A program made the translations under genes and the position numbers. The notes under the pieces were generated by a model. The model ran no database searches. It saw only the letters and a list, made by a program, of their open reading frames with translations, and was not told where the DNA came from. A stretch of DNA of 32,000 nt, from the NCBI GenBank assembly GCA_023818895.1, contig JAMWCX010000001.1:149789-181788 (forward strand), in the 5' to 3' direction. Source of the DNA: Candidatus Omnitrophota bacterium. Lineage in GTDB: Bacteria > Omnitrophota > Gorgyraeia > 2-01-FULL-45-10. Shown one piece after another: positions 1-21,917 of this stretch (the first letter of the stretch is position 1; each line of letters begins with the position of its first letter).

Positions 1-127
1 CCCCTTTTCATCCGATGCGCATATCGATATCTGTAACTTTTATTACTTATTACGCCCTTCTATTCCGCACCCTCCTATATCCCATTGCGATGATCGCTCC
101 TACGAGCCCCACGACCGTCGCCGGCTC
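1..127. repeat. 127-nt perfect repeat (partner 1795-1921) covering the PEP-CTERM tail, stop codon and 3' flank of two different genes
   Basis: Window positions 1-127 read identically to 1795-1921 (ccccttttcatccgatgcgcatatcg...gtcgccggctc). The two sequences diverge immediately upstream in both genes. Confidence 0.9.
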
Positions 128-1129
128 CGGAACAGGTTCTCCTTCGAGCCCGCTTCCCAACTTGATATAGTACCTACCGTTATAAGTCCATGAATCTCCA
201 ATATCATAGCCGGTGTCTCCGGGAAGGGTGCCGGAGAGGTAGCGCCAGGTGACATTGTCTATCGCCACTTCTCCAGAGCCTGCAACGTAAAGGTCAGTCA
301 ACTGCTTTATCTGGCTTGTGGTGTAGTTTAAATCTAAATCAGGAATAGCCGTAGTAATATGCTCAAAATCCTCAATACCTTTTCCAGCCATTCCTAAGTT
401 ATAGATAGCCGCAACTTCGTTCGCATCCAATGCTCTATTCCATATAGCAACGTCGTCAACAGTGCCATCAAAACCGTAATTTTGGCGGCCAATCTTAAAT
501 CCACCCACCCACCAATCATGTGTGGAATAATTAAAAGTGGCTGAATCTGTTTCAATTAAGCCGTTTGGCCCATAAATATATGTTTTCTTATCTGGTTTAT
601 TAAAGGTTAAGGCAGTAAAATACCAAGTATCTGCGCTCCAACTGGTTTGAGTGCTTAATAGATCGTTATGCGTATAAGGATATGAATTGGAATAATGATT
701 CAATTTGCCATCACCATAATAATTAAGCGACATATTTACAGTACTATATAAAAACAGGCCTATGCCGCCTGTCTGCGAAGATGAATCAATAGTTACATCC
801 GGCTTAAACCAAAGGGTAACGGTATAAGTTGATGAATAGCTTTGTCCGCCAAGCGCCTGTGTAATATAGCTGTTATTGGGAACTTCAATATAAGAACTGT
901 TTCCTTCTCCTGTGAAGTTATATGCCTGTCCGATTTTGCCTGTAACCACGCTTGCGTTATTTACCGAACCAACCTGCGAATGGCCGGTAGAATCGCTAGC
1001 ATCGCCGTCGAGCTTCCAATAGGTCATTAGCGAGTTCTCGTAGGCAGCATGAGCTCTTGTAGCGCAGAATGCACTTATAACAAGTACAAGTATAAGAACC
1101 ACTGATCGTAAATTTGTAGATATTTTCAT
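50..1129 (-). CDS. Secreted LamG/concanavalin-A-like lectin-fold protein with PEP-CTERM sorting signal
   Basis: 359-aa ORF with a signal peptide (MKISTNLRSVVLILVLVISAFCATRAHA). LamG-type motifs are present (YWKLDGDASDSTGH near the N-terminus, DDVAIWNRAL near the end of the fold). The C-terminus PVPEPATVVGLVGAIIAMGYRRVRNRRA gives the PEP motif, a TM helix and a basic tail. The ATG at 1129 is preceded by AAGGTAGG. Confidence 0.85.
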   Translation of the reverse strand: MKISTNLRSVVLILVLVISAFCATRAHAAYENSLMTYWKLDGDASDSTGHSQVGSVNNASVVTGKIGQAYNFTGEGNSSYIEVPNNSYITQALGGQSYSSTYTVTLWFKPDVTIDSSSQTGGIGLFLYSTVNMSLNYYGDGKLNHYSNSYPYTHNDLLSTQTSWSADTWYFTALTFNKPDKKTYIYGPNGLIETDSATFNYSTHDWWVGGFKIGRQNYGFDGTVDDVAIWNRALDANEVAAIYNLGMAGKGIEDFEHITTAIPDLDLNYTTSQIKQLTDLYVAGSGEVAIDNVTWRYLSGTLPGDTGYDIGDSWTYNGRYYIKLGSGLEGEPVPEPATVVGLVGAIIAMGYRRVRNRRA

Positions 1130-1156: not shown

Positions 1157-1190
1157 AAAAATCCCGACCTCCTACTCAGGAAATCGGGAT
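1157..1190 (-). terminator. Intrinsic terminator forming the expression platform of leader copy A
   Basis: The minus strand reads TCCCGATTTCC-TGAGT-AGGAGGTCGGGA followed by TTTTT. The stem is about 11 bp including G-U pairs. It lies between the aptamer and the start codon at 1129. Confidence 0.7.
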
Positions 1191-1196
1191 GCGCAA

Positions 1197-1370
1197 AGCT
1201 TTACGTTAGCTTTAAACGGCAACTGGCTGGCGTGCGATATTCTGCGACGCCCCTATAGCTTTGCTACGGCCTTTAAGTTTTCTTCAGGCCGCAGTCCTGA
1301 GCAATGTCCTAAGTTACATCGACGGACATTGCCGAAGAACGCCCCGCCCTTTCGGGAGGTTTGCGATTAG
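1197..1370 (-). promoter_or_regulatory. GEMM-I (c-di-GMP-I)-like riboswitch leader, copy A, with a 76-nt insertion in the aptamer core
   Basis: The minus strand reads CTAATCGCAAACCTCCCGAAAGGGCGGGGC-[76 nt, 1265-1340]-GCAAAGCTATAGGGGCGTCGCAGAATATCGCACGCCAGCCAGTTGCCGTTTAAAGCTAACGTAAAGCT. It has the same modules as copies B-D, except for the insertion between the first hairpin and GCAAAGC. Confidence 0.6.
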
Positions 1371-1392
1371 TTACTTTCTTTTTTCTACAAAG

Positions 1393-1420
1393 AGTATACC
1401 TGATTCTGATAAATAGTCAA
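1393..1420 (-). promoter_or_regulatory. Sigma70-like promoter for leader A (TTGACT-N16-TATACT)
   Basis: The minus strand reads TTGACT (1420-1415), a 16-nt spacer, then TATACT (1398-1393). It sits about 25 nt upstream of the aptamer. The same architecture occurs at the same relative position in all four copies. Confidence 0.55.
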
Positions 1421-1512
1421 TAAAGAATAACTAACTTTTTTATTTTCAATTCTGCATTACTCATATTTTAAAATGGTGATAGGTATATAAGATTCGATTC
1501 GGCTGCTTGCTA

Positions 1513-1816: not shown

Positions 1817-1921
1817 ATCGATATCTGTAACTTTTATTACTTATTACGCCCTTCTATTCCGCACCCTCCTATATCCCATTGCGATGATCGCTCCTACGAG
1901 CCCCACGACCGTCGCCGGCTC
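1795..1921. repeat. 127-nt perfect repeat, partner of 1-127
   Basis: Identical to 1-127. It covers the last about 26 codons (PEPATVVGLVGAIIAMGYRRVRNRRA), the stop codon and the 3' flank. Confidence 0.9.
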
Positions 1922-2932
1922 AGGGACGCCGCCTTCCGGCCCATACATGATCACGGGGCCAAAACCCTTAGATCCATCAAAACTGATGCGTGACCAGCTT
2001 GTGCCGTCATACTTCGAAACCAGGCCATAAGACCACGATCCGCTTCCTACTCCGGATGCATATACGTTGCCCGCATCATCGGCTGTCAAGCTGTTGATCC
2101 ATAAATAAAGGCTGTTGTCGAAACCTGTCTCCACCCAGCTTGTGCCGCCAAGATATTTGAAAACGTACTCAGTCCCGTAACCGCTTCCCGCTGCAAATAG
2201 ATCACCGTCGCTGTCCATGGCAAGGCCCATGATGACCCATGTATGAGGGCTATTATTGTATATGGACGTCCATGCGGTTCCTCCGTCGTATTTACTGATC
2301 TTCCCGTAGCTTCTCGAAGTATCTATACCATACACATACAAAGTATTAGTAGCTTGCGCGACCCACAGGTTAGAGTCGGAATACCCGCTCACACCCATAT
2401 CTGTCCAGCTCGTCCCGCCGTTCCACACGCGAACGCCATAGTTCTGATTGCCGCCCGCATAAAGGTTGCCGTTGTAGACCGCAAGGCCTGTTATAACCTC
2501 AGGCGAATTGAACCCGATATAATCCCAATTCGTTCCGCCCGTATATTTATAGACACCGGCGTAGTTATATCCGCCTGCATAAAGCGTTCCGTTTCCGTAC
2601 GCGAGGGTATTTATGTTGGTAACGCTGGTAAGGCCCAGAGATGTCCACGCCGTTCCGTCATATTTATAGACGCCGCCTCCTCCGAGGCCGGCAACGTAAA
2701 GATTGCCCGAATCATCCTTTACTATAGAACGGACCTCGCTTATCGCAGTCAGGCGAGGATCGGTCGGCGTCCAGTTAGATCCATCATACACATATATTTC
2801 ATTTGTGGCCCCCATATATAGTTGTTCGACATGGTCGGCGTAGATTTCCTGTGTTACAACGATAGAAAGCACCAACACCAGGAAAGTCGGTATAGTTATG
2901 CTCAGCAATTTCTTTAAGATTTGCGGCTTCAT
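1844..2932 (-). CDS. PEP-CTERM-anchored beta-propeller-type repeat protein
   Basis: 362 aa with an N-terminal hydrophobic signal/anchor (LLSITIPTFLVLVLSIVV). It has about 6-7 degenerate repeats of the type LYAGG...GVYKYDG(T)xW(T). The C-terminus is PEGGVPEPATVVGLVGAIIAMGYRRVRNRRA. Confidence 0.8.
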   Translation of the reverse strand: MKPQILKKLLSITIPTFLVLVLSIVVTQEIYADHVEQLYMGATNEIYVYDGSNWTPTDPRLTAISEVRSIVKDDSGNLYVAGLGGGGVYKYDGTAWTSLGLTSVTNINTLAYGNGTLYAGGYNYAGVYKYTGGTNWDYIGFNSPEVITGLAVYNGNLYAGGNQNYGVRVWNGGTSWTDMGVSGYSDSNLWVAQATNTLYVYGIDTSRSYGKISKYDGGTAWTSIYNNSPHTWVIMGLAMDSDGDLFAAGSGYGTEYVFKYLGGTSWVETGFDNSLYLWINSLTADDAGNVYASGVGSGSWSYGLVSKYDGTSWSRISFDGSKGFGPVIMYGPEGGVPEPATVVGLVGAIIAMGYRRVRNRRA

Positions 2933-2992
2933 AATATCACCAGATAAAATAATTTAACCCCTCTCTCGCGATTAGGAAGCTTTTCAATTATC

Positions 2993-4071
2993 TTATTTTT
3001 TTCTCCTCAAAGAACGCTTTATTCCAAACAGCGCCAAAGCGCTGAATAAGCCGATTACAGAAGCAGGCTCGGGGACACCGCCTTCCGGTTCTCCCTCCAA
3101 GCCGCTTCCCAGCTTGATGTAATACTTGCCACCTTAGGTCCAGGAATCTCCGATGTTGTAGCCGGTGTCTCCGGGAAGGTTGCCGGAGAGGTAGCGCCAG
3201 GTGATGCCGCCTATCTCCACTGAGCCCGTCTGAGCCGCGTAAAGGTCCGCGAGGGCACCGATGGCGTCTGTGTCATATACGTCCTGGCTGAAACCGAGGG
3301 TGTCCGCCTATCAGGCCTTCGTTGTAGAGGTGCGTTATCTGGGCGGAGGTCAAGGCGCTGCTCCAAACGGATACCTCATCAATCGAGTCGTCCCATGACC
3401 ATCTGCCGCCGGCATTATTGCTTCCTATTTCAAACGGATCCGTTCCCCTGATATCCTGGTTATTCAAAGTATTAGAATTTATTACTGTGCTTCTCTCCGT
3501 ACCATCTATGTATATCTTCAAACCGGTTGGACTGGAGGGATAATTCACGCCATCGTAAGTGCCCATAATGAAGTGCCAGTTTAAATCATCAAGAGAAGTG
3601 TCCGTGGTGATCTCCCTGAGCACGTATTGTCCGTATTGGCCTGTGTAAAGCATAAATACTACAGTTTCATTGTAATAATACATTTCATATCCTCTCAAAT
3701 AATACTTTCCAAGCAGCGCCCTTTCTCCTGTGGTAGCCGGGTTTGTGGTCTTAAACCACCCCCCCTATGCTGAAGGCATTATTGTAATTGAATGTCAGAT
3801 TGGATTTATTACCGACCTGAATATCGCTGTTGGTGCCGTTAAAGGCATAAGCGGTTCCTACTTTACCAGATGTGGTCAAAGTCGCATCGACCGTCAGGCT
3901 GTTGCTATCCTTCGAATCTCCCGTAGGACCGAGAGGATTTGCGGAGTCGAATTGCCAATAACTCACAAGGGAAGAATCTTCGTACACGCTTGCGCCAAAC
4001 CCTGTCCCTTCGCCCAGCACAAGGAGCACTATCGTTATTCCGATAATCAGTGACGCGCGTAGAGGTCTCAT
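2993..4071 (-). pseudogene. Decayed LamG/PEP-CTERM paralog (two frameshifts and one nonsense codon)
   Basis: Three ORF fragments in different frames (3751-4071, 3273-3698, 2993-about 3300) are collinear with the intact paralog at 18295-19359. There is a frameshift at a G7 run (plus-strand C7 at 3759-3765). An 11-nt deletion relative to the paralog lies at about 3303/3304. An in-frame TAA at 3134-3136 replaces the Tyr of SWTYNGRYYIKLGSG. The PEP-CTERM tail (VPEPASVIGLFSALALFGIKRSLRRKK) is still readable. Confidence 0.8.
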
Positions 4072-7000
4072 TTTAGCATTCTCGTTCTCCTGATCCTCCT
4101 CCACCCTACTATAATAAAAGCTCCCATAATCCCCACAACCGTCGCCGGCTCAGGGATTTCGCCGCCCGTCCCATAATTAAGAAATACATCCGTTCCACTC
4201 TTGGACATGCTCCATCCGGTAGCTGGTTGCCCTCCGCTAAACTGCAGCGTGAAATCATTCCAAGTCGGGATGCTGCCGGCGCTTATCACTATAAAGCTTG
4301 ACCCAATCTGGGGTAAGAAATTATCAAGATAACTGATCTCGAGGATAGCGCCGGGGTTGACGGAGAGCATGCCCGTTACATTTATCCAGTCCCATCCGGG
4401 ATCGGCGCCTTTTCCACCTATGATATCGGAATTTATCTCCCAGAGATAGATGCTGTTCTCATCGAAGGTAAGATTGGTAAATGTCTGTGTTCCAGGAGAA
4501 TCGCCCGGCGAAAGAATACCGCCAGCCGGAATCGTTACCGCAGTATCTAATTCTCCGACACCTTTCAACATACCCCCCATCATAGTGAATGAGGGCCCTG
4601 AGAACGTCCCTGCTAGATCAAAAGTCCCGCCATCCATGATAAAATCCCCTGTGCCGGAGATGTCCGTGGCGTGGAGTATACCACCGTTCATATCAAAAGT
4701 GCCATTGTCACCAATTACCATCTCCCCCACCGTCAATATCTTCTGATCCTCGAGCGTATATGAGGCCGTTTCAGTGCTCGTTCCGATCTTTAACGAAGCA
4801 AACTCAAGATCGCTTTGCGTATTTAGCGCGTAGTCTGTTCCGCGTATGTCGATCGTGCCGTTGGAACCATCAAGGGTGTTCGCATAGAGAGTGCCTCCTA
4901 ATATTCTGTAGGTTCCGCCTGCGCCTATTATCATCGTAACGATAGGGTTATCTTCGGTGCCGACCTGCGCATCGGCGCTCTGTACAAATGTTCCTGTGCC
5001 GCCACTTCCGATATTGATAGTATTGGCGGTAAGCGACCCGTATACACGAAAACTACCAACCGCGGAATCTCCAATATAGAGCGTAGCCAAATCGATATTA
5101 GAGCCGCTTCCGCTAAGGAGCAGGCCGCCATTAATTGAGATACTGCCACCGGAGATACTGCCGTCAGATATTGATAATACGCCGCCGTTAAGGTCGTAGT
5201 TACTGTTCAGATTCATGACGCCGTTCGGCAGTGAGACACTATAGTTATTCTGTATTACGTCTCTATTCACATTTATATAATTAGCGGCGATGTTGCCAGG
5301 AACCGTGAAAGAACAGGATCCGTAGCTTAAGGTAAGCGTATCGAGGTACGCATTATCAAAAGTTAAGGCAATGCCGCTAGTATCGTTTAGCGTACCCTGT
5401 CGCGTGGAAGATGTATTGATAGTGCCAGCGGCAAGCCAACTGCCAGAAATCGCCAATTCGACGCCGCTGCCGATTGTGATGGTATTGGCGCTTACGCCAT
5501 TGTACAGGGTAAGTGGGCTATTAACATTCAGAGTGTCAACCTTCATCGTGTGTCCTAAAGAAAGAGATCCTCCGTTATATGTATATGTTCCTTGGTTATC
5601 CCCAAAAGGATTTATGCCGCCACCTATACTGACCGAGTGACCGGACTGAATGACTTCGCTACCGATGCCTATTGCCATATTACCCGTGCTTATATCGCAC
5701 GGTACCTCTAAAGTGAGGTTATCGCCGATGGTAAAATTGGCCATATCGCTTATGCGGCCATTTGGTACGCTGATACTGCCACCATTGTAATAGAAGTTGC
5801 TGCCGGAGCTGCCTACAATGCCATTTTGCCCTGATACTGTCAAATCACCGCTCTGGAGATCGTAGTAACCTGCGTTCAGAGTCATATCACCTTCGACTGT
5901 GACGGTATCGTTTTGCGTAAAAGCCCCCTCTATGTACAAATAGGTGGCGTTGATAGACTGATCCGTTTTTTGGTCAAAATATACTCCTGAGCCGATATTA
6001 AATGTGCCGACATCGATGGTGGCGGCGTTCACGCTGGCCGAATTACCTGTAATAGCGAAAGTCCCGCTTCCGCTTATACTGCCCGTGCTCAATGCGCCGG
6101 CGTATAAGGTATAGGTCGAGCCTGACGCTATGCCCAGGGTGTTTTCTATCGTCACATCGTCCTGCTGGGTAAAGCTGCTGACAGTAATTCCATTGCCGAT
6201 GCTCATATTACCAGCCGTGATGGTTTGACCTGAATTTTGTGTAAAACTCACACCCTCGCTGCTTTCGCCCCAGCCAATATTAAGGTTATCAACATCCATA
6301 GTGGTCCACGTGCCAGACATTGTGCCTCCGTCAATATTTAGCGTTCCCGTACCGGGTCCGTTTCCGATTGAGTCGTTTACGGTAAGCACTCCGCCTTGTA
6401 AAGTATATATACCCTCGTAATTTTCCGCCATTCCGATATTGAGCTTATTTATCGTGTTGCTGCCGCCATACTGGATGAACCTCCCATAGGCGCCGAGGCC
6501 TATGTTCTCCGTATCGCCGCTTATGGTTATGCCGGGGCCTATCGCGAGCTCACCGTCATTGATATTACCGACATTCAGCGTTGTGCCGCTAATGGAACCT
6601 CCGGCGATTGTGATATAGGGCGTTGTAGTGTTGACGTTAAATGTGCTTGTGCCCGAACCGCTCGTAACATTTCTCCCGACATATAGAGTGCCTCCGTTGT
6701 AATCATATGTTCCGGATGAGCCTTCATTGACGCCCATGGCGAGGTCGCCGGATACAGTCAGTATTCCCGCCGACTGGGAAATTGTCCCTGTGCCTGAATT
6801 GCCGATGGTCAGGCCGCCGGTTGTTATGCTGATAGTCCCGTCGTAATTAAACTGGCCAGTGTAGCCGGCGCCATCGCCTACGGATAATGAGGATAACTCA
6901 AGCGACGAGCTAAAGGGTATGGTATAGGATCCTGTAGTATCGATGACAAGCCCTCCATAGAGATTAACAGAGGGAGACGCTATTGTAATGCTGGCTCCGG

Positions 7001-7433
7001 ATCCCTGCAGCCGAAGCTCTCCAAAAATATCGAGTCCTTGCGATGAGCAATAAACCTGCGAATTTTTGTTTAAAACGAGATTGTAAGCAGTGCACGACCC
7101 CCACCCATAGCTTGAAAATGCCCCCAATCCATAATTATCTGCGATAGTAATGGTAGTGCCGTTATCTGCGTAAAACTCCCACGGGTATGCCCAGTCTCTA
7201 ATTATAACCGAGGCACTAAACACGGCCATATCATGATAATCATCATAGGGAATTCCATAATCCCAATTGTTAGGATTATCGTAATAAGGGTCTTCGTATG
7301 CATAAAAATGATGCACGCAATGTTCATCATCTCCCCACGCGGGCGAAGAAGCGACACAGGCTATAATCGCGCATACCACAAGTCTCGCCATTAAATTATC
7401 TAGATGCACCTTTTGACTAATAAACCTTTTCAT
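4068..7433 (-). CDS. Large (1121 aa) PEP-CTERM surface protein with Gly/Thr/Asn-rich parallel beta-helix (autotransporter-passenger-like) repeats
   Basis: It has a signal peptide (ARLVVCAIIACVASSPAWG). About 900 aa are irregular G-x-(L/I)-x-(I/V) repeats (e.g. GGLTIGNSGTGTISQSAGILTVSGDL, GGVLTVNDSIGNGPGTGTLNIDGGT). The C-terminus is EIPEPATVVGIMGAFIIVGWRRIRRTRMLK. The ATG lies 4 nt after the stop of the upstream gene, and its stop overlaps the next start (ATGA at 4068-4071). Confidence 0.85.
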   Translation of the reverse strand: MKRFISQKVHLDNLMARLVVCAIIACVASSPAWGDDEHCVHHFYAYEDPYYDNPNNWDYGIPYDDYHDMAVFSASVIIRDWAYPWEFYADNGTTITIADNYGLGAFSSYGWGSCTAYNLVLNKNSQVYCSSQGLDIFGELRLQGSGASITIASPSVNLYGGLVIDTTGSYTIPFSSSLELSSLSVGDGAGYTGQFNYDGTISITTGGLTIGNSGTGTISQSAGILTVSGDLAMGVNEGSSGTYDYNGGTLYVGRNVTSGSGTSTFNVNTTTPYITIAGGSISGTTLNVGNINDGELAIGPGITISGDTENIGLGAYGRFIQYGGSNTINKLNIGMAENYEGIYTLQGGVLTVNDSIGNGPGTGTLNIDGGTMSGTWTTMDVDNLNIGWGESSEGVSFTQNSGQTITAGNMSIGNGITVSSFTQQDDVTIENTLGIASGSTYTLYAGALSTGSISGSGTFAITGNSASVNAATIDVGTFNIGSGVYFDQKTDQSINATYLYIEGAFTQNDTVTVEGDMTLNAGYYDLQSGDLTVSGQNGIVGSSGSNFYYNGGSISVPNGRISDMANFTIGDNLTLEVPCDISTGNMAIGIGSEVIQSGHSVSIGGGINPFGDNQGTYTYNGGSLSLGHTMKVDTLNVNSPLTLYNGVSANTITIGSGVELAISGSWLAAGTINTSSTRQGTLNDTSGIALTFDNAYLDTLTLSYGSCSFTVPGNIAANYINVNRDVIQNNYSVSLPNGVMNLNSNYDLNGGVLSISDGSISGGSISINGGLLLSGSGSNIDLATLYIGDSAVGSFRVYGSLTANTINIGSGGTGTFVQSADAQVGTEDNPIVTMIIGAGGTYRILGGTLYANTLDGSNGTIDIRGTDYALNTQSDLEFASLKIGTSTETASYTLEDQKILTVGEMVIGDNGTFDMNGGILHATDISGTGDFIMDGGTFDLAGTFSGPSFTMMGGMLKGVGELDTAVTIPAGGILSPGDSPGTQTFTNLTFDENSIYLWEINSDIIGGKGADPGWDWINVTGMLSVNPGAILEISYLDNFLPQIGSSFIVISAGSIPTWNDFTLQFSGGQPATGWSMSKSGTDVFLNYGTGGEIPEPATVVGIMGAFIIVGWRRIRRTRMLK

Positions 7434-7437
7434 GGGT

Positions 7438-8616
7438 TCACCATTTGTTATTTATCGCGCTTCTCCTTATCCATCCGCGCCGTTTGCCAAAAAATATCAT
7501 GGCCGTAATAGCCATTCCAAAGACCGTCGCCGGATCGGGGGCGCCTTTTTCACCTAATCCGCCTCCCAGATAAATATACCGCTGGCCTGTTGACATGTTT
7601 ATAAAGATATCACCAGGGTTGTGACCTGTCCAGATAGGGTCATCATGGGGTATATACTCCCAAGTAACATCGTCTATAGTTACTTCACCTTCCTGTGCCA
7701 GATAAAGATCGGATAACTGTTTTAATTCGCTGCTACTATACCCCAGATTAAAAAGTGTATTCATACCTATAAGGAGATTTTCATACTTCTCAACGCCGAG
7801 GTCGTAGATCATCTTTATCTCGTTTGAATCAAGCGCGCGATTCCACACGGCAGTATCGTCCATATAGGTGCCCGGGGAAAGAGGGTAATCCTCCGTACTT
7901 CCCGGCTCATAGTACCACCTAACGCCGCCCAAGAGGAACGGAACCCCGGTGGCGCTTAACGACCACTCGCCTATTACCGTATTGGAAACGGCGGTGGGAT
8001 TGCCATTCACGTATATGGATGCCACCTCGTCATAATGATTTACCTGGGATACAATATTCCACGTTATGGCTACATGCGACCATTTGGGTTCTTGTCCATA
8101 AACGGACATCGGTACCTGGACTGAGTTATTCCAATAATAGCTATTATTATCGCCAACAAATGGATACAAAACCGAGTAACCGGAATATGAGCTGTTTTGC
8201 ATAAAAAGGGCGGTCGCCCCAAGCCCGCCGGGGCCATCAAAGCTATTAACATCAGCGTAACCGGCCAGACCTACTCCATCTGACTCCGTCGGGATTTTCA
8301 ACCATACAGAGAAGGTGCCTGCGGTAGGCAGGACGGGCATTTCCTGGCTTACACCATTATAGGGCATTACCGCATTGCCGAATTTTCCCACACCCCACGA
8401 GGTATTGCCGGTATTATTAAAAGTCACGTTAGTATGCCCCGTTGAATCGGCGGCGGTATCGCCGCTTGTTTCATCGAACTTCCAGTAATAAAGCAGTGAA
8501 GTTTCGTAAGAGGCAAAAATAGGCGGGGCGACGCCCGCAATCACGATACATATGATTATGCCTATAAATATTTTCGTCCTCATCGCCCTCACCCCTCTCT
8601 CGAGTTTTGTAATCAT
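7438..8616 (-). CDS. Secreted LamG-like lectin-fold protein with a degenerate PEP-CTERM-like tail (PDP instead of PEP)
   Basis: 392 aa containing YWKFDETSGDTAADSTGH, DDTAVWNRALDSNEIKMIYDLG and the shared pre-tail module (LKQLSDLYLAQEGEVTIDDVTWEYI...). The tail is GAPDPATVFGMAITAMIFFGKRRGWIRRSAINNKW. An alternative start MRTKIF at 8583 would give a cleaner signal peptide. Confidence 0.8.
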   Translation of the reverse strand: MITKLERGVRAMRTKIFIGIIICIVIAGVAPPIFASYETSLLYYWKFDETSGDTAADSTGHTNVTFNNTGNTSWGVGKFGNAVMPYNGVSQEMPVLPTAGTFSVWLKIPTESDGVGLAGYADVNSFDGPGGLGATALFMQNSSYSGYSVLYPFVGDNNSYYWNNSVQVPMSVYGQEPKWSHVAITWNIVSQVNHYDEVASIYVNGNPTAVSNTVIGEWSLSATGVPFLLGGVRWYYEPGSTEDYPLSPGTYMDDTAVWNRALDSNEIKMIYDLGVEKYENLLIGMNTLFNLGYSSSELKQLSDLYLAQEGEVTIDDVTWEYIPHDDPIWTGHNPGDIFINMSTGQRYIYLGGGLGEKGAPDPATVFGMAITAMIFFGKRRGWIRRSAINNKW

Positions 8617-8634
8617 TTTAGTTCCCTCTCAAAC

Positions 8635-8666
8635 AAAAATCCCGACCTCCTACTCGGAAATCGGGA
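8635..8666 (-). terminator. Intrinsic terminator forming the expression platform of leader copy B
   Basis: The minus strand reads TCCCGATTTCC-GAGT(A)-GGAGGTCGGGA followed by TTTTTG. It lies about 20 nt upstream of the start codon at 8616. Confidence 0.75.
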
Positions 8667-8727
8667 CGCGTAATCCTTGGCCAGAGGCCAAGGATGGCCG
8701 CACATTTCAAGAGAAATGTGCAAGCCG

Positions 8728-8829
8728 AGCTTTACGTTAGCTTTAAACGGCAACTGGCTGCCCTGACGATTTTTCCGTCGAGGACCCTATAGCTTTGCGT
8801 CCCACCCTTTCGGGAGGTTTGCGATTATA
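8728..8829 (-). promoter_or_regulatory. GEMM-I (c-di-GMP-I)-like riboswitch aptamer plus conserved 3' mini-hairpin, copy B
   Basis: The minus strand reads TATAATCGCAAACCTCCCGAAAGGGTGGGACGCAAAGCTATAGGGTCCTCGACGGAAAAATCGTCAGGGCAGCCAGTTGCCGTTTAAAGCTAACGTAAAGCT. The GCAAACC / GAAA tetraloop hairpin / GGGACGCAAAGC / second hairpin / GUUGCCG order matches the Vc2-type consensus as I remember it. Two extra perfect hairpins (8672-8694 and 8700-8721) separate it from the terminator. Confidence 0.75.
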
Positions 8830-8850
8830 CCACTTCTGTTATCTAAAGCA

Positions 8851-8880
8851 AGTATACCTTATATATATATATAAATGCAA
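8851..8880 (-). promoter_or_regulatory. Sigma70-like promoter for leader B (TTGCAT-N18-TATACT) with a (TA)7 tract in the spacer
   Basis: The minus strand reads TTGCAT (8880-8875), an 18-nt spacer, then TATACT (8856-8851). The position relative to the aptamer matches the other copies. Confidence 0.5.
8860..8873. repeat. (TA)7 dinucleotide microsatellite inside the promoter spacer
   Basis: tatatatatatata was read directly at 8860-8873. The paralogous promoter of copy C has only (TA)4, at 19615-19622. Confidence 0.9.
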
Positions 8881-13510: not shown

Positions 13511-15745
13511 CTATGTTTTTCGCAGGGTCGTAAGTTCCGTTATTATATCGCCCGCCCACTTATAGACATTTTGTTCGGCAACCACTTTTCTCAGATTCTC
13601 CATCCGACGCCTCTTTTCGGGATCTGGCATCTCCACGGCCAATTTTATGCTGTCGGCGAATTCTTCGATCGAATAAGGTTTGATCTGTATGGCTTCAGAC
13701 AGCTCTTTCGCCGCCCCAGTAAAGCGGCTCAATATCAGGGTTCCGTTAAGGTCGTTCTTTGCGGCTATGTATTCCTTGGCGACAAGGTTCATGCCGTCGT
13801 GAAGCGAGCTTACTATGCAGATATCCGCGAGCCTGTAGAACGGCTTTATATCCTCAGGAGAAAAGTGGCGTTTTAAATATATTATAGGCCTCCATTCCTC
13901 GTCCAGGTATTTCCAGTTTATCTTTTCCACAAGCTCGTCAAGCTCCCCTATCAGGTCGTGATAGCGTTTTATGTGCGTCCTGCTTGGGGCGCCCAGCTGG
14001 ACAAAGACGAACTTCTTCCTGTAATCCGGGTATTTTTCCAGGAAACGGTCTATGGCGACCATGCGCTCGGCCAGACCCTTGGTGTAGTCTATCCTGTCGA
14101 CCCCAATCGCCACTATCTTTCCTTCCAGCTCGTAATCCCTGACGATCCTTTCCGATTTTTTTGCGTCGTCTTTATCGATGGAGCCGTTTATGTTTATATC
14201 CACGCTTATAGGGAAAGATCTGACAAAAGTCTCTTTTCCTCCCCGGATCACACTGAATTTTTCCGTATCGATCCGGCACTCCAGGAACCTGTTGGCCGTA
14301 TCGATGAAGTTGTTGCAATGATACTGGACATGAAAGCCTATAAGGTCGCATCCCAGCATGCCGTCCAGGATCTCCGCGTTATAGGGGCATATGGCGAATA
14401 CCTCGGGATTCGGCCAGGGTATATGCCAGAATAGCGCGATAGTGGCGTCAGGCCGCTTGGCTTTTATCATCTGGGGTAAAAGGGTGAAATGGTAGTCCTG
14501 TATAAAAACAAAAGGATTGTTCGCGGGCAGCTCCTCGATAACGCTTTCGGCAAATTTCTGGTTCGCCCTCCTATATATCTGCCAGTCGGACTCCCTGAAC
14601 ATCGGCCTGGTGTGGGTTATGTGGCAAAGCGGCCAGAGCCCTTCGTTAGAGAAACCGTAATAATAGCCGTCCTCCTCCTCTTTAGTGAGCCATACCCTCT
14701 TGAGTATATAGCGGTTATCTTCAGGCGGGACGCCGAGCTTGTTCTTGGAATTCACGAATTTCCTGTCGGCGTTGGCGCTACCGTGGGCTATCCAGGTTCC
14801 TCCGCAGGCGCGCATTATCGGGTCTATGGCCGTTACGACACCGCTGGCAGGACGGACACATGCTGCCCGGCCTGTCGCCTCATTAATGGTATGCAGATAA
14901 GGTTCCCTGTTAGAAACGACGAAGAAAGCGTTCTCCCCCAGTTTGGCCCTGACAAGGTCCCTAAGTCTTGCCTCTGTCCACAGATCTTCCCGCTCCAGGC
15001 GGACCTTAGCCTCCTCGGTTACGGCCTTTCTTGCTATCCGCAGCCCCAGGGCGACCTGTTCTACCTCCCTCGCGAGTTTGCCGAGTTCGCCCTTTTCCTT
15101 TATAGGATGCCTGAGGTCGGTCTCTCCTTTTTGGAATTTCTTGAACAATTCTGTAAGGCGCTCGACCGGATCGGTGAATATACGCCTATGCACCATAATG
15201 GATATTGCCGCGATCAGCATGAGCAGGATGATGAGCGCTATGCTGAGGCTTTTCCATATCTCGGCCAGCTGGGTGAAGACGTACGACGTGTCGTAAAGAA
15301 TCTCTTCCAGCCCGACCGTCTTTCCTTCTTCATCCGGCACAGGAAGCACGTAGCTGTATACCGTGTATTGCTTAAATTTTTCGATGCCTCCCCGGGGCGC
15401 GGCGTCTTTCAGGATGTCTTTGATATAAGGCTTGTCCTTGTCCTTCCATTCGGAGAAGCGGTCCGTGATGGCCAGCATGTTGCCGTCTTTGTCGTAGATG
15501 GCGCATCCCTGCATCCTCTCACGTCTCTGGAATTTTTGGACGAGACGTTCAATGCTGCGCCGGTCATCGCTGATAAGGGCATTGCGCACCGACAATTCCA
15601 GGCTCTCCGCCACGGCCCGCGCCTTCCTTCTGAGCTCATCTAGAAGCTTTGCCTCCTCGTAGCGCACGTGGAAGATGCCGAATATGACGAGGACCATCGT
15701 TACCATGATGAGTATCGGTAGTATAAACAGCATTAGCCTTTTCAT
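13511..15745 (-). CDS. otsA: Trehalose-6-phosphate synthase (GT20) fused to an N-terminal TM / extracytoplasmic sensor / TM / HAMP module
   Basis: 744 aa. Residues 1-about 265 comprise TM1 (LFILPILIMVTMVLVIFGIF), an about 140-aa loop, TM2 (LSIALIILLMLIAAISIMV) and a HAMP-like segment (DPVERLTELFKKFQKG...GELGKLAREVEQVALGL). The GT20 catalytic region follows (FFVVSNREPY...GLWPLCH...FWHIPWP...DGMNLVAKEY). Confidence 0.85.
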   Translation of the reverse strand: MKRLMLFILPILIMVTMVLVIFGIFHVRYEEAKLLDELRRKARAVAESLELSVRNALISDDRRSIERLVQKFQRRERMQGCAIYDKDGNMLAITDRFSEWKDKDKPYIKDILKDAAPRGGIEKFKQYTVYSYVLPVPDEEGKTVGLEEILYDTSYVFTQLAEIWKSLSIALIILLMLIAAISIMVHRRIFTDPVERLTELFKKFQKGETDLRHPIKEKGELGKLAREVEQVALGLRIARKAVTEEAKVRLEREDLWTEARLRDLVRAKLGENAFFVVSNREPYLHTINEATGRAACVRPASGVVTAIDPIMRACGGTWIAHGSANADRKFVNSKNKLGVPPEDNRYILKRVWLTKEEEDGYYYGFSNEGLWPLCHITHTRPMFRESDWQIYRRANQKFAESVIEELPANNPFVFIQDYHFTLLPQMIKAKRPDATIALFWHIPWPNPEVFAICPYNAEILDGMLGCDLIGFHVQYHCNNFIDTANRFLECRIDTEKFSVIRGGKETFVRSFPISVDININGSIDKDDAKKSERIVRDYELEGKIVAIGVDRIDYTKGLAERMVAIDRFLEKYPDYRKKFVFVQLGAPSRTHIKRYHDLIGELDELVEKINWKYLDEEWRPIIYLKRHFSPEDIKPFYRLADICIVSSLHDGMNLVAKEYIAAKNDLNGTLILSRFTGAAKELSEAIQIKPYSIEEFADSIKLAVEMPDPEKRRRMENLRKVVAEQNVYKWAGDIITELTTLRKT

Positions 15746-18294: not shown

Positions 18295-19359
18295 TTACAC
18301 CCTTCTGTTCCGATACCTCCTGTACCCTATCGCAATGACCGCTCCCAATATCCCCACGACCGTCGCCGGCTCTGGAACAGGCTCTCCTTCGAGCCCGCTT
18401 CCCAACTTGATATAGTACCTACCGTTATAAGTCCATGAATCTCCAATATCATAGCCGGTGTCTCCGGGAAGGTTGCCGGAGAGGTAGCGCCAGGTGATGC
18501 CGCCTATCTCCACTGAGCCCGTCTGGGCCGCGTAAAGGTCCGCCAGGGCCCCAATGGCGTCTGTGTCGTATACGTCCTGGCTGAAACCGAGGGTGTTTAT
18601 CACTCCTCCGCCTATCAGGCCTTCGTTATAGAGGTGCGTTATCTGCTCTGATGTTAAAGCGGTGTTCCATATGGCGACTTCGTCGATAAGGCCGTTAAAA
18701 TAAGGCTTACCTTCTTCGGAAGGATAAGCAATATTTACACCAAATGTCCAGTTGCCGCCGTTAGATTGTTTAAAATAGTACCAGTTTTCTCTTAGTTCGG
18801 TATCAGCGGCACCATTAACATAGACAGTCATGACGTTATTTTCATATACAACAGCATACTGGTACCATGTGTTCGCTTCCCAACAGTCTCTTTGGGTAAC
18901 TGCGCTTGTCCAGTAATACCAGTAAGAACGTAGTTGACCCGGCCAATTAGGATGGAAATGACCAAAAATTTGATATTTATTTCCGCTCCATCCGTTGTTA
19001 TTGGTAACAATAGTGATATCTTTTGTTACTGATCTGTCAATTCTTTCATTTGGCCTAAAGAAATACACTACCGTGAAACTCCTATCTGCAGGGCTATCGG
19101 ATAAGACGGGATAAGGAACATTAATATAGCCATTTGTCTCATCAAAGATATAGGCTCCTCCTACTTTTCCTTGGCTTGTCCACGTTGCACCATTTACCAC
19201 GCCATGGTTGGTTCCTATAGAGTCATCGGCGTTTTGATTATCAAAATTCCAGTAGGCTACAGCACCATCATATACCGTCGCCGCATACTCCTCTGCTGCG
19301 TCGAACGCCAAGCACGCGATTATTACTCCGATCATCAGTGACGCGCGTAGAGGTTTCAT
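18295..19359 (-). CDS. Secreted LamG/concanavalin-A-like lectin-fold protein with PEP-CTERM sorting signal
   Basis: 354 aa containing a signal peptide (MKPLRASLMIGVIIACLAF), YWNFDNQNADDSIGTNHG, IDEVAIWNTALTSEQITHLYNEGL and the shared pre-tail module. The C-terminus is PVPEPATVVGILGAVIAIGYRRYRNRRV. The Shine-Dalgarno sequence GAGGTGG precedes the ATG. Confidence 0.85.
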   Translation of the reverse strand: MKPLRASLMIGVIIACLAFDAAEEYAATVYDGAVAYWNFDNQNADDSIGTNHGVVNGATWTSQGKVGGAYIFDETNGYINVPYPVLSDSPADRSFTVVYFFRPNERIDRSVTKDITIVTNNNGWSGNKYQIFGHFHPNWPGQLRSYWYYWTSAVTQRDCWEANTWYQYAVVYENNVMTVYVNGAADTELRENWYYFKQSNGGNWTFGVNIAYPSEEGKPYFNGLIDEVAIWNTALTSEQITHLYNEGLIGGGVINTLGFSQDVYDTDAIGALADLYAAQTGSVEIGGITWRYLSGNLPGDTGYDIGDSWTYNGRYYIKLGSGLEGEPVPEPATVVGILGAVIAIGYRRYRNRRV

Positions 19360-19427: not shown

Positions 19428-19477
19428 TTTTTTAGGCATAGCCTAAAAAAATGTCCCAACCTCCGGAACGATTGGGA
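19428..19477 (-). terminator. Tandem hairpins forming the expression platform of leader copy C
   Basis: The minus strand reads TCCCAATC-GTTCCGGA-GGTTGGGA, then CA and a T7 run. The T7 run is also the 5' arm of a second perfect hairpin, TTTTTTAGGC-TAT-GCCTAAAAAA. The first stem covaries with copies A, B and D (CCCGA/TCGGG becomes CCCAA/TTGGG). Confidence 0.7.
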
Positions 19478-19483
19478 TCGCAA

Positions 19484-19584
19484 AGCGTTACGTTCGCTCT
19501 AACGGCAACTGGCTGCCCTGACGATTTTTCCGTCAAGGACCCTATAGCTTTGCGTCCCACCCTTTCGGGAGGTTTGCGATTATA
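19484..19584 (-). promoter_or_regulatory. GEMM-I (c-di-GMP-I)-like riboswitch aptamer plus 3' mini-hairpin, copy C
   Basis: The minus strand reads TATAATCGCAAACCTCCCGAAAGGGTGGGACGCAAAGCTATAGGGTCCTTGACGGAAAAATCGTCAGGGCAGCCAGTTGCCGTTAGAGCGAACGTAACGCT. The aptamer is nearly identical to copy B. The mini-hairpin stem is AGCG/CGCT instead of AGCT/AGCT. Confidence 0.75.
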
Positions 19585-19605
19585 TCACTTTTCTCATCCA
19601 AATTA

Positions 19606-20482: not shown

Positions 20483-21736
20483 TTACACCCTTCTGTTCCG
20501 ATACCTCCTGTACCCTATCGCAATGACCGCTACCAATATTCCCACAACCGTCGCCGGCTCGGGGACAGGAGGAGGATCTCCTGCGAGTCCAGGATTCCTT
20601 ATTTCGATATAGTATTTATTTGTCGCGGCGTCATAGAAAGCATGTCCAGGGCTATAAGGCCCACCCGGCAAATTTTCTAAATAGTGCCATGTAATGCCAT
20701 CGCTTGTTTTTACAGAAGCTTCAGGGTCTGCGCTTCTGTATAGAGCGGTTAATGCCTCTAATTCTTCTTCGGTATATTCAAAATGGAGAGCGGATGTTAC
20801 CGCATCGTTGATATAATTATAGAATAGATCAAGATAGTAGATTTCTCTGTCAACTCCGTCTGAAGCATCCCATGCCAAAGCACCATTATAGAAGGAGAGG
20901 GAATAGATCGCATTAGTGCTATTGATTAATTCATTGGTGGTCGATCCTTCCCACAAAAATATCTTATTGGTGCTCGCTTCATTTATCCAGGCAACCATTC
21001 TGTCATAAACAACAGGGCTAAAATCTCTACTGCTATTATTAGTAAGCCGGCGTGTGGTTGTGCCGTCCCAGTAATATATTTCGTTCTCGCCTCCCGAGAC
21101 CCTACTCGCCCACGCTATTGTGCCATTATATAAGGATGGCTCCTCCTCAATAGCGCTGTTGTTAGTTATTCTTTGACTGGAAGTTCCGTTCCAATAATAA
21201 ATCTCGGAACCGTACCCACTACCACTAATATATGCTATTTCGTTATTTCCGAGTGAGGGAGAACTGTCATAGACGCTATTGTTTGTTATCTGCTGTGTCG
21301 TAGATTTGTTCCAATAATAGATCTCATAAGCCCCTGATCCGCCGTGATATGCTATATTGCCATTATATGTCGAAGGGCGGGCTTGGTATATAGAGTCGTT
21401 CGTGAGTTGATGCGTTGAGCCGTCCCAGTAATAAATTTCCAAATCCGTTCCATCGTTGTGTTCCCACGCAATTACTCCACCATGAAAGGAAACTTTCTGG
21501 TCTGACAACGAATCATTCGTTATCCTCTGTGTTGTTGAACCATCCCAATAATATACTTCATTGTTTGCTATCCACGCGATCTCGCCATTATAAACTTTGG
21601 GATCCTGGTCATTATATGAATTATTCGTTATCTGCAAAGGAGTCCATCCAGCATGAGAATTTGCTGCTACGAGCGACAATAGCAGCATTATCGCAAAAAT
21701 AATTAGCCCCTTTAATGTGGCGTGTCTTCTTCCCAT
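20483..21736 (-). CDS. PEP-CTERM-anchored beta-propeller-type protein with about 40-aa EIYYWDG repeats
   Basis: 417 aa with a signal peptide (LIIFAIMLLLSLVAANSHA). There are six clear repeats plus one degenerate repeat of the form ...P.(v/l)y.g.IAW.....e(I/V)YYW(D/N)GsttqriTNnS.... These are followed by the shared pre-tail module (LEALTALYRSADPEASVKTSDGITWHYLENLPGG...YYIEI) and PVPEPATVVGILVAVIAIGYRRYRNRRV. Confidence 0.85.
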   Translation of the reverse strand: MGRRHATLKGLIIFAIMLLLSLVAANSHAGWTPLQITNNSYNDQDPKVYNGEIAWIANNEVYYWDGSTTQRITNDSLSDQKVSFHGGVIAWEHNDGTDLEIYYWDGSTHQLTNDSIYQARPSTYNGNIAYHGGSGAYEIYYWNKSTTQQITNNSVYDSSPSLGNNEIAYISGSGYGSEIYYWNGTSSQRITNNSAIEEEPSLYNGTIAWASRVSGGENEIYYWDGTTTRRLTNNSSRDFSPVVYDRMVAWINEASTNKIFLWEGSTTNELINSTNAIYSLSFYNGALAWDASDGVDREIYYLDLFYNYINDAVTSALHFEYTEEELEALTALYRSADPEASVKTSDGITWHYLENLPGGPYSPGHAFYDAATNKYYIEIRNPGLAGDPPPVPEPATVVGILVAVIAIGYRRYRNRRV

Positions 21737-21752
21737 TTTTCCTACCTCAACT

Positions 21753-21784
21753 AAAAATCCCGACCTCCTACTTGGAAATCGGGA
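21753..21784 (-). terminator. Intrinsic terminator forming the expression platform of leader copy D
   Basis: The minus strand reads TCCCGATTTCC-AAGT(A)-GGAGGTCGGGA followed by TTTTTAG. It ends 17 nt before the start codon at 21736. Confidence 0.75.
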
Positions 21785-21804
21785 CGCGTTCTCTCGACGA
21801 GAAC

Positions 21805-21900
21805 GAGCTTTACGTTAGCTCTAAACAGCAACTGGCTGGCGTGCTTACGCGACGCCCCTATAGCTTTGCGGCCCGTCCTTTCGGACGGTGTGCGATTATA
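21805..21900 (-). promoter_or_regulatory. GEMM-I (c-di-GMP-I)-like riboswitch aptamer plus 3' mini-hairpin, copy D (most compact)
   Basis: The minus strand reads TATAATCGCACACCGTCCGAAAGGACGGGCCGCAAAGCTATAGGGGCGTCGCGTAAGCACGCCAGCCAGTTGCTGTTTAGAGCTAACGTAAAGCTC. The first hairpin is fully Watson-Crick paired (CCGTCC/GGACGG) through changes compensatory to copy B. The second hairpin is capped by GTAA. Confidence 0.75.
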
Positions 21901-21917
21901 TTCATTTATCTACTTTA

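Follow-up and report, generated by a model that had tools for sequence, protein, structure and literature searches.

A GEMM-I riboswitch with cytosine at position 20 ahead of LamG and PEP-CTERM surface-protein genes in an Omnitrophota bacterium

How are the genes for a set of secreted, lectin-like proteins regulated in a bacterium of the uncultivated phylum Omnitrophota? The question is raised by a 32,000 nucleotide stretch of DNA, referred to here in its entirety as the window, from a Candidatus Omnitrophota bacterium (NCBI GenBank assembly GCA_023818895.1, contig JAMWCX010000001.1, positions 149,789 to 181,788 of the forward strand). An earlier note on this DNA, made from the sequence alone, proposed that a riboswitch of the GEMM-I class, also known as c-di-GMP-I for its recognition of c-di-GMP (cyclic diguanosine monophosphate), lies on the minus strand and gates a multi-gene operon of PEP-CTERM surface proteins. 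Is this leader, with its aptamer at 8746–8833, indeed a riboswitch? If so, is c-di-GMP the ligand, and does the ligand turn the genes on or off? The 8746 element is a real riboswitch of the very common GEMM-I / c-di-GMP-I fold family. The reading we favour, with moderate confidence, is that of a cis-acting GEMM-I riboswitch working as a terminator OFF switch with c-di-GMP as its likeliest ligand, which way it switches and what it binds being what we infer.

From 8833 to 8746 the minus strand reads GUGGUAUAAUCGCAAACCUCCCGAAAGGGUGGGACGCAAAGCUAUAGGG...CAGCCAGUUGCCGUU, as had been transcribed correctly before. In a search of the whole window against all 4227 Rfam families, for which the E-value was computed, this segment matched RF01051 (c-di-GMP-I) over the full model, positions 1–87, at 62.9 bits (E = 3e-10); the gathering score of the family is 35 bits. 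In clan competition RF01051 was the top-scoring family at every copy of the element, ahead of c-di-GMP-I-GGC and c-di-GMP-I-UAU. The pockets of the variant families (G47, or U20 together with U92) are absent at 8746, where the pocket is comprised of C20 (8823), A47 (8796) and C92 (8749). The claim that this leader is one of four copies within 22 kb stands as well. Those with aptamers at 8746, 19501 and 21824 gave full-length matches to RF01051, and the fourth, the 1215 copy, reached 29.5 bits in a permissive scan that matched its 3' half only (1215–1281). This copy scores below the threshold because a 76 nt insertion splits its aptamer, a splitting that the earlier note had overlooked.

Relatives were found by a pattern scan, with one genome per species, and by look-ups of LamG homologues. 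The same leader is present in two Omnitrophota metagenome-assembled genomes (L009 and L024), in a close relative whose assembly is fragmented (L265 and L266) and on two metagenome contigs (L262 and L256). Eight related leaders were aligned, with a mean identity of 79%, and 7 of the 26 predicted pairs carry compensatory changes, of which P2 and P3 have three each and a small 3' hairpin one. Alignment to the model structure and this covariation show the 8746 aptamer to have the P2 hairpin with its GNRA loop, the P3 hairpin and the junction. The AAUC that precedes G21 is invariant in all eight, and the fold of the 8746 leader is far more stable than those of shuffled sequences (z = -5.3). The RF01051 scores, the terminator scan and this z-score together place the observation far beyond chance.

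The hairpin and U run seen at the end of the leader were confirmed by the terminator scan as a stem of 12 pairs, six of them G-C, followed by UUUUUGUUU (Table 1). The hairpin is also present in the full-length minimum-energy fold, so that both analyses bear out the transcription-termination expression platform that had been proposed. A terminator is found behind every copy in the window and also in L009, L024, L262 and L266, and an identical terminator sequence lies downstream of the 21824 and 1215 copies. Between aptamer and terminator the 8746 leader has two extra hairpins that are exclusive to it, the other aligned leaders being without them. Closer to the aptamer, 3–4 nt past its end, is the small hairpin AGCU-AACGUAA-AGCU. 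Its loop hardly varies, and compensatory changes preserve the stem in the 19501 leader (AGCG/CGCU) and in L256, where the stem is shifted. Judging from the leaders aligned here, it is a marker of the Omnitrophota leader subfamily, and it could be a substitute for P1, a pause site or a binding site. A role for this 3' region as a decoy for the P3 strand was also considered and rejected, as the complementarity is not conserved.

Upstream of the aptamer, a promoter-like block of TTGCAT and TATACT is conserved in three of the window leaders, and a GGTATACT-like -10 element also lies ahead of the leaders in L009, L262 and L265. The TTGCAT-18 nt-TATACT element was not detected by a simple σ70 scan. 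We take the block to be the predicted promoter, from which transcripts would start approximately 20–25 nt ahead of the aptamer. Another candidate -10 box, TATAAT at 8829–8824, lies within the 5' tail of the model with the conserved TATACT 22 nt upstream of it, and was rejected because a start from TATAAT would remove G21-C22. Within the 18 nt promoter spacer there is a (TA)7 run (8861–8874, minus strand), and the other leaders have a shorter or broken version of it. Slippage in this run would alter promoter spacing, making phase variation possible.

The reference structure of RF01051 is Vc2 from Vibrio cholerae, whose signature had been recognized in this leader. Most of that signature is present: the two RNAs share GCAAACC, the GAAA-capped P2, GGGACGCAAAGC with A47, P3, and the 3' GCC with C92. 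What had been overlooked is the base before GCAAACC, which is C rather than G20, so that the 8746 RNA differs from Vc2 at a position that contacts the ligand. It also differs in having no evident long P1, in the AGCU-AACGUAA-AGCU hairpin after the aptamer, in a terminator platform whose 5' arm complements the aptamer core, and in its Omnitrophota host. The aptamer is a member of the GEMM-I fold that lacks the G20 feature of the c-di-GMP-selective class. Each of the four window copies has C at the position of G20, and so do L009, L024, L262 and L266, which is to say every relative with a visible 5' half. No copy departs from A47 in the GCAAAGC junction. Position 92 is C in the 8746, 19501 and 1215 copies and U in the 21824 copy. 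The latter also has an A24C/A43C pair (GCACACC...GGGCCGC), and both of its ligand-pairing positions differ from those of Vc2; its pocket, C20/A47/U92, is near to, not equal to, that of the UAU variant.

In which direction would such a leader switch, a point on which the earlier note was silent? The decision point was modelled by folding each RNA after truncation just before the 3' arm of the terminator. In the truncated 8746 RNA the minimum-energy fold pairs GCGUCCC, at the foot of the terminator 5' arm, with GGGACGC of the aptamer core, with a summed pair probability of 7.5 and a duplex energy of -17.4 kcal/mol versus a mean of -14.0 for shuffled arms. Of the five canonical leaders folded in this way, four pair the terminator 5' arm with U-GGGACGC of the aptamer core, and the fifth pairs it with the P3 strand. 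In the 19501 leader a 13 nt stretch, GCUUUGCG(A)UCCCA, complements the aptamer core and 7 nt more add to this; here the full-length RNA takes the aptamer-disrupting antiterminator form as its minimum-energy fold. The 3' arm of the terminator is similar to the competing aptamer strand, for example in L024 (GGUUGGGACGC and GGAUGGGACGC). The fraction of shuffled arms with a duplex energy at or below that observed is 0.002 for 19501, less than 0.002 for L024 and 0.04 for L262. No segment able to block the terminator with the aptamer folded was found in the leaders. An OFF layout, in which ligand binding promotes termination, is favoured since the 5' arm of the terminator pairs best with the aptamer core and no segment turned up that would block the terminator once the aptamer has folded; on these folding models we consider it somewhat probable.

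The proposed sequence of events is as follows. The promoter, approximately 25 nt upstream, would start an mRNA encoding secreted lectin-like (LamG) and repeat proteins with PEP-CTERM tails. The aptamer, of about 88 nt, would fold into P3 and a GAAA-capped P2 that surround the cyclic-dinucleotide pocket, with the terminator coming next. Without ligand, the core GGGACGC would be free to pair with GCGUCCC, and the blocked terminator would let the polymerase read on into the operon genes. Once the ligand has bound, the core would be locked in the aptamer, the terminator would form, and transcription would stop at the U run (8631–8638). Cd1 of Clostridioides difficile is reportedly a c-di-GMP-I transcription-terminating OFF switch of this sort, with G20, in front of a flagellar operon; it shares with the leader described here a GEMM-I aptamer with an intrinsic terminator and, as proposed here, a ligand that favours termination.

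Several findings weigh against the reading of this leader as an OFF switch for c-di-GMP. There is no convincing P1 helix past about three pairs (U.G, A-U and A-U are all that can be drawn), and a P1 formed from the leader segments GCUUUAG and UUAAAGC was rejected, its pairing not being conserved in other leaders. The base found at 8823 is C, where the c-di-GMP-selective subclass has G20, and a literature search found no paper addressing C20 and no C20 binding data. Support for the antiterminator pairing is uneven: it is marginal in the 8746 leader itself, with a shuffled-arm fraction of 0.10 (0.11 for L009), and at approximately 0.5 it is no better than controls in 21824, 1215 and L266. The full-length minimum-energy fold of the 8746 leader holds the terminator and the aptamer helices together, which means that any switch must be kinetic. 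Naively, one would expect c-di-GMP to turn matrix or adhesion proteins on, the reverse of an OFF response. Finally, the 32 kb window has no gene for a diguanylate cyclase, a phosphodiesterase or an exosortase (EpsH/Xrt).

Some of these same points would suit an ON switch, in which the same aptamer and terminator are used, the ligand prevents termination, and high c-di-GMP induces the PEP-CTERM surface proteins. This would match the usual link between c-di-GMP and the matrix, which is a biological expectation only. The terminator does form by default in the full-length minimum-energy fold, as the unbound state of an ON switch needs, and the antiterminator complementarity is not significant in three of the eight leaders. 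An ON switch would, however, require a sequence that pairs with either arm of the terminator while the aptamer is folded, and none was found, the spacer being made up of self-contained hairpins. The best partner of the terminator 5' arm is instead the aptamer core, which couples aptamer folding to terminator formation, and the 19501 copy has its 13 + 7 nt of aptamer-disrupting complementarity. We therefore regard the ON arrangement as unlikely.

What does the OFF switch sense? In Vc2, G20 contacts the Hoogsteen face of one guanine of c-di-GMP, C92 forms a Watson-Crick pair with the other, and A47 is intercalated between the two bases of the ligand. The literature describes A47 as better conserved than G20 and C92. 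As C replaces a base that contacts one of the guanines, C20 may shift affinity or specificity. To see how unusual it is, position 20 was left unconstrained in an unbiased pattern scan, which gave 142 matches in metagenomes and viral contigs. The 126 metagenome matches have G (119), A (6) or U (1) at this position and never C, and the 16 from viral contigs have G (14) or A (2); over the whole sample G20 accounts for 94% and C20 for 0/142. A scan with a pattern that requires C found at least 119 C20 loci, in as many species and in many phyla. On these counts C20 is rare (less than about 2%) yet recurrent, and conserved in the Omnitrophota lineage. The first genes after C20 aptamers encode S8 peptidases, pilins, surface proteins with fn3 and Ig-like domains, CheX/CheC, methyl-accepting chemotaxis proteins, two-component proteins and, in one case, a GGDEF protein. 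The same kinds of genes come first after G20 aptamers, and a comparison of the two sets disclosed no distinct regulon for C20. Because the downstream genes are alike, c-di-GMP would be the likeliest ligand, perhaps bound with lower affinity. Pocket mutants are said still to bind c-di-GMP.

Might C20 aptamers sense something else, such as 3'3'-cyclic GMP-AMP (cGAMP)? The 21824 copy, with C20 and U92, could then prefer an A-A or other dinucleotide, and the four leaders would not all answer to one signal. Position 20 contacts a ligand base, and the G20A change switches selectivity to cGAMP in Geobacter riboswitches; the Vc2 G20A/C92U double mutant loses its c-di-GMP affinity and binds c-di-AMP. 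The base at 8823 is not the A20 of cGAMP riboswitches either, but cytosine would, like that adenine, offer an amino donor and a ring-nitrogen acceptor. The rarity of C20 in the unbiased sample, set beside its invariance in eight covarying leaders and its occurrence in 119 or more species, gives it the look of a selected feature, and some genomes have C20 aptamers arrayed in tandem with G20 or A20 ones. On the other side, C20 and G20 aptamers have largely the same gene families behind them, GGDEF and chemotaxis genes included, whereas distinct regulons are typical of validated specificity variants. No other part of the pocket is altered: a search for co-varying changes that accompany C20 found no difference between the C20 and G20 sets at the other pocket positions, apart from a depletion of G at position 19. 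The binding of c-di-GMP by Vc2 is so tight (about 10 pM) that even an aptamer with much reduced affinity could be a physiological sensor of c-di-GMP, and no cGAMP synthase is seen in the window. Taking these points together, another ligand seems to us improbable, though by no means negligible.

A broader proposal, which we hold with similarly low confidence, is that the Omnitrophota leaders form a distinct GEMM-I subclass. Its characters would be the invariant C20, the fused hairpin with the AACGUAA loop and, in about half of the members, a two-helix insertion between C44 and G45. Its ligand preference would be changed (for example to 3'3'-cGAMP, or to another dinucleotide in the case of C20/U92) or its affinity markedly retuned, and it would have a dedicated regulon of exosortase-sorted lectin-like proteins.

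The tandem arrangements are of interest in their own right. Leaders with arrays of two to four GEMM-I aptamers and mixed G, A and C at position 20 occur in Clostridia (L049, L051, L085 and L108) and in Sabulitectum (L005 and L045). Such mixed arrays could act as multi-input logic or give a range of affinities for a single ligand.

The insertion is best seen in the fourth window copy. This reads CUAAUC-GCAAACCUCCCGAAAGGGCGGG-GC, then the 76 nt insertion (1340–1265), then GCAAAGCUAUAGGGG...; the 5' half of the aptamer is at 1341–1365 (C20 = 1365) and the 3' half at 1215–1264. The insertion is comprised of two helices and is placed exactly between C44 and G45. The same design is found in L266, L262 and L256 and in a G20 aptamer of another Omnitrophota metagenome-assembled genome (L014), with insertion lengths of 41–78 nt among the split aptamers. 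The first inserted helix, GUYCY...RGGAC, shows a U-A to C-G exchange, and the second, CUGCGGCC.../CUGUGAACC..., several exchanges. Since both inserted helices covary and the P2 of L266 is fully compensated, the split aptamers look functional. That the fourth copy is a decayed aptamer without P2 was also considered, and rejected on the evidence of L265 and L266, which show the 5' half upstream of the insertion.

Could the leaders be relics without function that were carried along when PEP-CTERM genes were recently duplicated? There is almost no difference between the 8746 and 19501 aptamers, two of the encoded tails are identical in a way that implies recent duplication or gene conversion, and one downstream gene is a pseudogene, but this explanation is very improbable given that P2, P3 and the 3' hairpin are kept by compensatory changes across at least five genomes or metagenomes, that the inserted helices of the split copies covary as well, and that every copy retains its terminator, with E-values of approximately 1e-10.

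Table 1. Leader elements and genes in the window, and split aptamers at other loci
Feature	Position	Strand	Remarks
Promoter-like element	8851–8880	-	TTGCAT (8880–8875), 18 nt spacer, TATACT (8856–8851)
c-di-GMP-I (GEMM-I) aptamer	8746–8833	-	P2 hairpin with GAAA loop and P3 hairpin; RF01051
Small hairpin AGCU-AACGUAA-AGCU	8728–8742	-	Directly 3' of aptamer; in all four window leaders and in L009, L024, L256, L262 and L266
Two extra hairpins, GCACAUUUC-UCUU-GAAAUGUGC and AUCCUUGGCC-UCU-GGCCAAGGAU	8673–8721	-	Predicted from fold; spacer between aptamer and terminator
GCGUCCC at foot of terminator 5' arm	8663–8669	-	Complementary to aptamer core GGGACGC (8803–8797); proposed antiterminator pairing
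Intrinsic terminator	8631–8667	-	Stem 8667–8639, U tract 8638–8631
First operon gene, 392-aa LamG-like (Laminin_G_3) secreted protein	7438–8616	-	Pfam PF13385, E = 1.2e-8
1121-aa glycine/threonine-rich repeat protein	4068–7433	-	Tail IPEPATV...RRIRRTR
Decayed LamG paralogue	2990–4071	-	Open reading frame fragments 3751–4104 and 3273–3698; Laminin_G_3 E = 6e-15 on the second
362-aa beta-propeller-like protein with PEP-CTERM tail	1844–2932	-	TIGR02595, 21.0 bits; weak propeller-repeat matches
Second copy: aptamer 19501–19588 (C20), terminator ~19445–19481	19445–19588	-	RF01051, 63.9 bits; upstream of LamG/PEP-CTERM gene 18295–19359
Third copy: aptamer 21824–21904, terminator ~21752–21787	21752–21904	-	RF01051, 54.2 bits; upstream of beta-propeller/PEP-CTERM gene 20483–21736
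Fourth copy, split aptamer	1161–1373	-	Upstream of LamG/PEP-CTERM gene 50–1129; terminator 1161–1190
Split aptamer in L266	~1342–1500		
Split aptamer in L262	~72–260		
Split aptamer in L256	1–100		
Split aptamer in L014	+654		

The genes behind the 8746 leader are arranged much as the earlier note had described. The stop codon of the LamG gene and the start of the 1121-aa gene are separated by a 4 nt gap, ACCC (7434–7437). The 1121-aa protein, which had been proposed to be a beta-helix protein, had no Pfam match and no sequence match in the PDB. The decayed LamG paralogue starts in an ATGA overlap (4068–4071) with the preceding gene and is broken by at least one frameshift and by a stop codon in frame. 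The first hairpin with a U-rich run behind these genes is at 1778–1816, with no terminator-like hairpin earlier, and the operon probably ends with the propeller gene.

The claim that all of the operon genes carry PEP-CTERM tails stood in part. With a cut-off of 16 bits, TIGR02595 is passed by the propeller protein (Table 1) and, outside the operon, by the products of 50–1129 (20.9 bits), 18295–19359 (17.8 bits) and 20483–21736 (17.5 bits). The tail of the 1121-aa protein falls just under the cut-off, at 14.7 bits; that of the LamG-like protein, PDPATV...KRRGWIRR, is a PDP variant with no TIGR02595 match; and the decayed paralogue keeps an out-of-frame remnant, GVPEPASVIGLF...RRKK. The last 27 residues, VPEPATVVGLVGAIIAMGYRRVRNRRA, are identical in the LamG protein of 50–1129 and the propeller protein of 1844–2932 (tail regions 50–130 and 1844–1925, minus strand), two proteins that are unrelated outside this tail. 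This suggests gene conversion or the recent transfer of a sorting tail.

Other genes in the window are of the housekeeping type, encoding a TrpB-like enzyme, trehalose synthesis, phosphofructokinase, a helicase and a membrane-bound hydrogenase. One of these, a trehalose-6-phosphate synthase (Glyco_transf_20) at 13511–15745 on the minus strand, has an N-terminal extension with weak matches to dCache_3 and HAMP (E ~1e-4), and could be a biosynthetic enzyme fused to a sensor.

In the relatives the leader is directly upstream of LamG genes in L009, L262, L256, L265 and L266. No GEMM-I element was found at the other LamG homologue loci (L255, L257–L261, L263 and L264), and the pairing of GEMM-I with LamG is therefore lineage-specific and not a general property of these LamG proteins. 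The contig of L255, which also carries LamG homologues, has an adenosylcobalamin-II (AdoCbl-II) riboswitch at 3968–4057 (minus strand) upstream of a gene for cobalamin-independent methionine synthase; this is an ordinary and unrelated element.

How new is a system of this kind? The earlier note knew of no described case of direct cyclic-dinucleotide riboswitch control over exosortase substrates with lectin-like folds, a claim of novelty that does not hold. A cluster of c-di-GMP riboswitches at PEP-CTERM genes has been reported from Methylophaga nitratireducenticrescens GP59, where four c-di-GMP riboswitches within 18 kb each flank a PEP-CTERM or VPLPA-CTERM gene, on the evidence of annotation and transcript levels only (PMC12530212, 2025). 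The likeness is one of gene arrangement, which is the same as here. GP59 is a gammaproteobacterium in which the cluster adjoins exopolysaccharide genes (PMC12530212), whereas the neighbours here are the housekeeping genes. Another comparison is with the GEMM-Ib or c-AMP-GMP riboswitches of Geobacter (Gs1761 and Gm0970). These share the GEMM-I scaffold, a natural substitution at position 20 and many copies per genome; they have A20 and exoelectrogenesis genes, and the leaders described here have C20 and LamG/PEP-CTERM cargo. In a survey of downstream genes the usual cargo of the c-di-GMP-I class was surface and secreted proteins. The lectin-like cargo and the Omnitrophota host are new, but they are details and do not make this a system of a new kind.

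For the family as a whole, these leaders extend the list of genes with c-di-GMP-I riboswitches to the uncultivated phylum Omnitrophota and to a LamG/PEP-CTERM regulon. Insertion-split aptamers score under the Rfam threshold, and the class is consequently undercounted in genome annotation. The C20 pocket variant is rare but widespread; it and the insertion-split aptamers are the more useful leads. If it is true that C20 alters ligand preference, this would be a further hidden specificity variant within a well-known family, as the cGAMP riboswitches were. For the bacterium itself, the layout of the leader suggests that its LamG/PEP-CTERM surface proteins are switched off, not on, by the signal.

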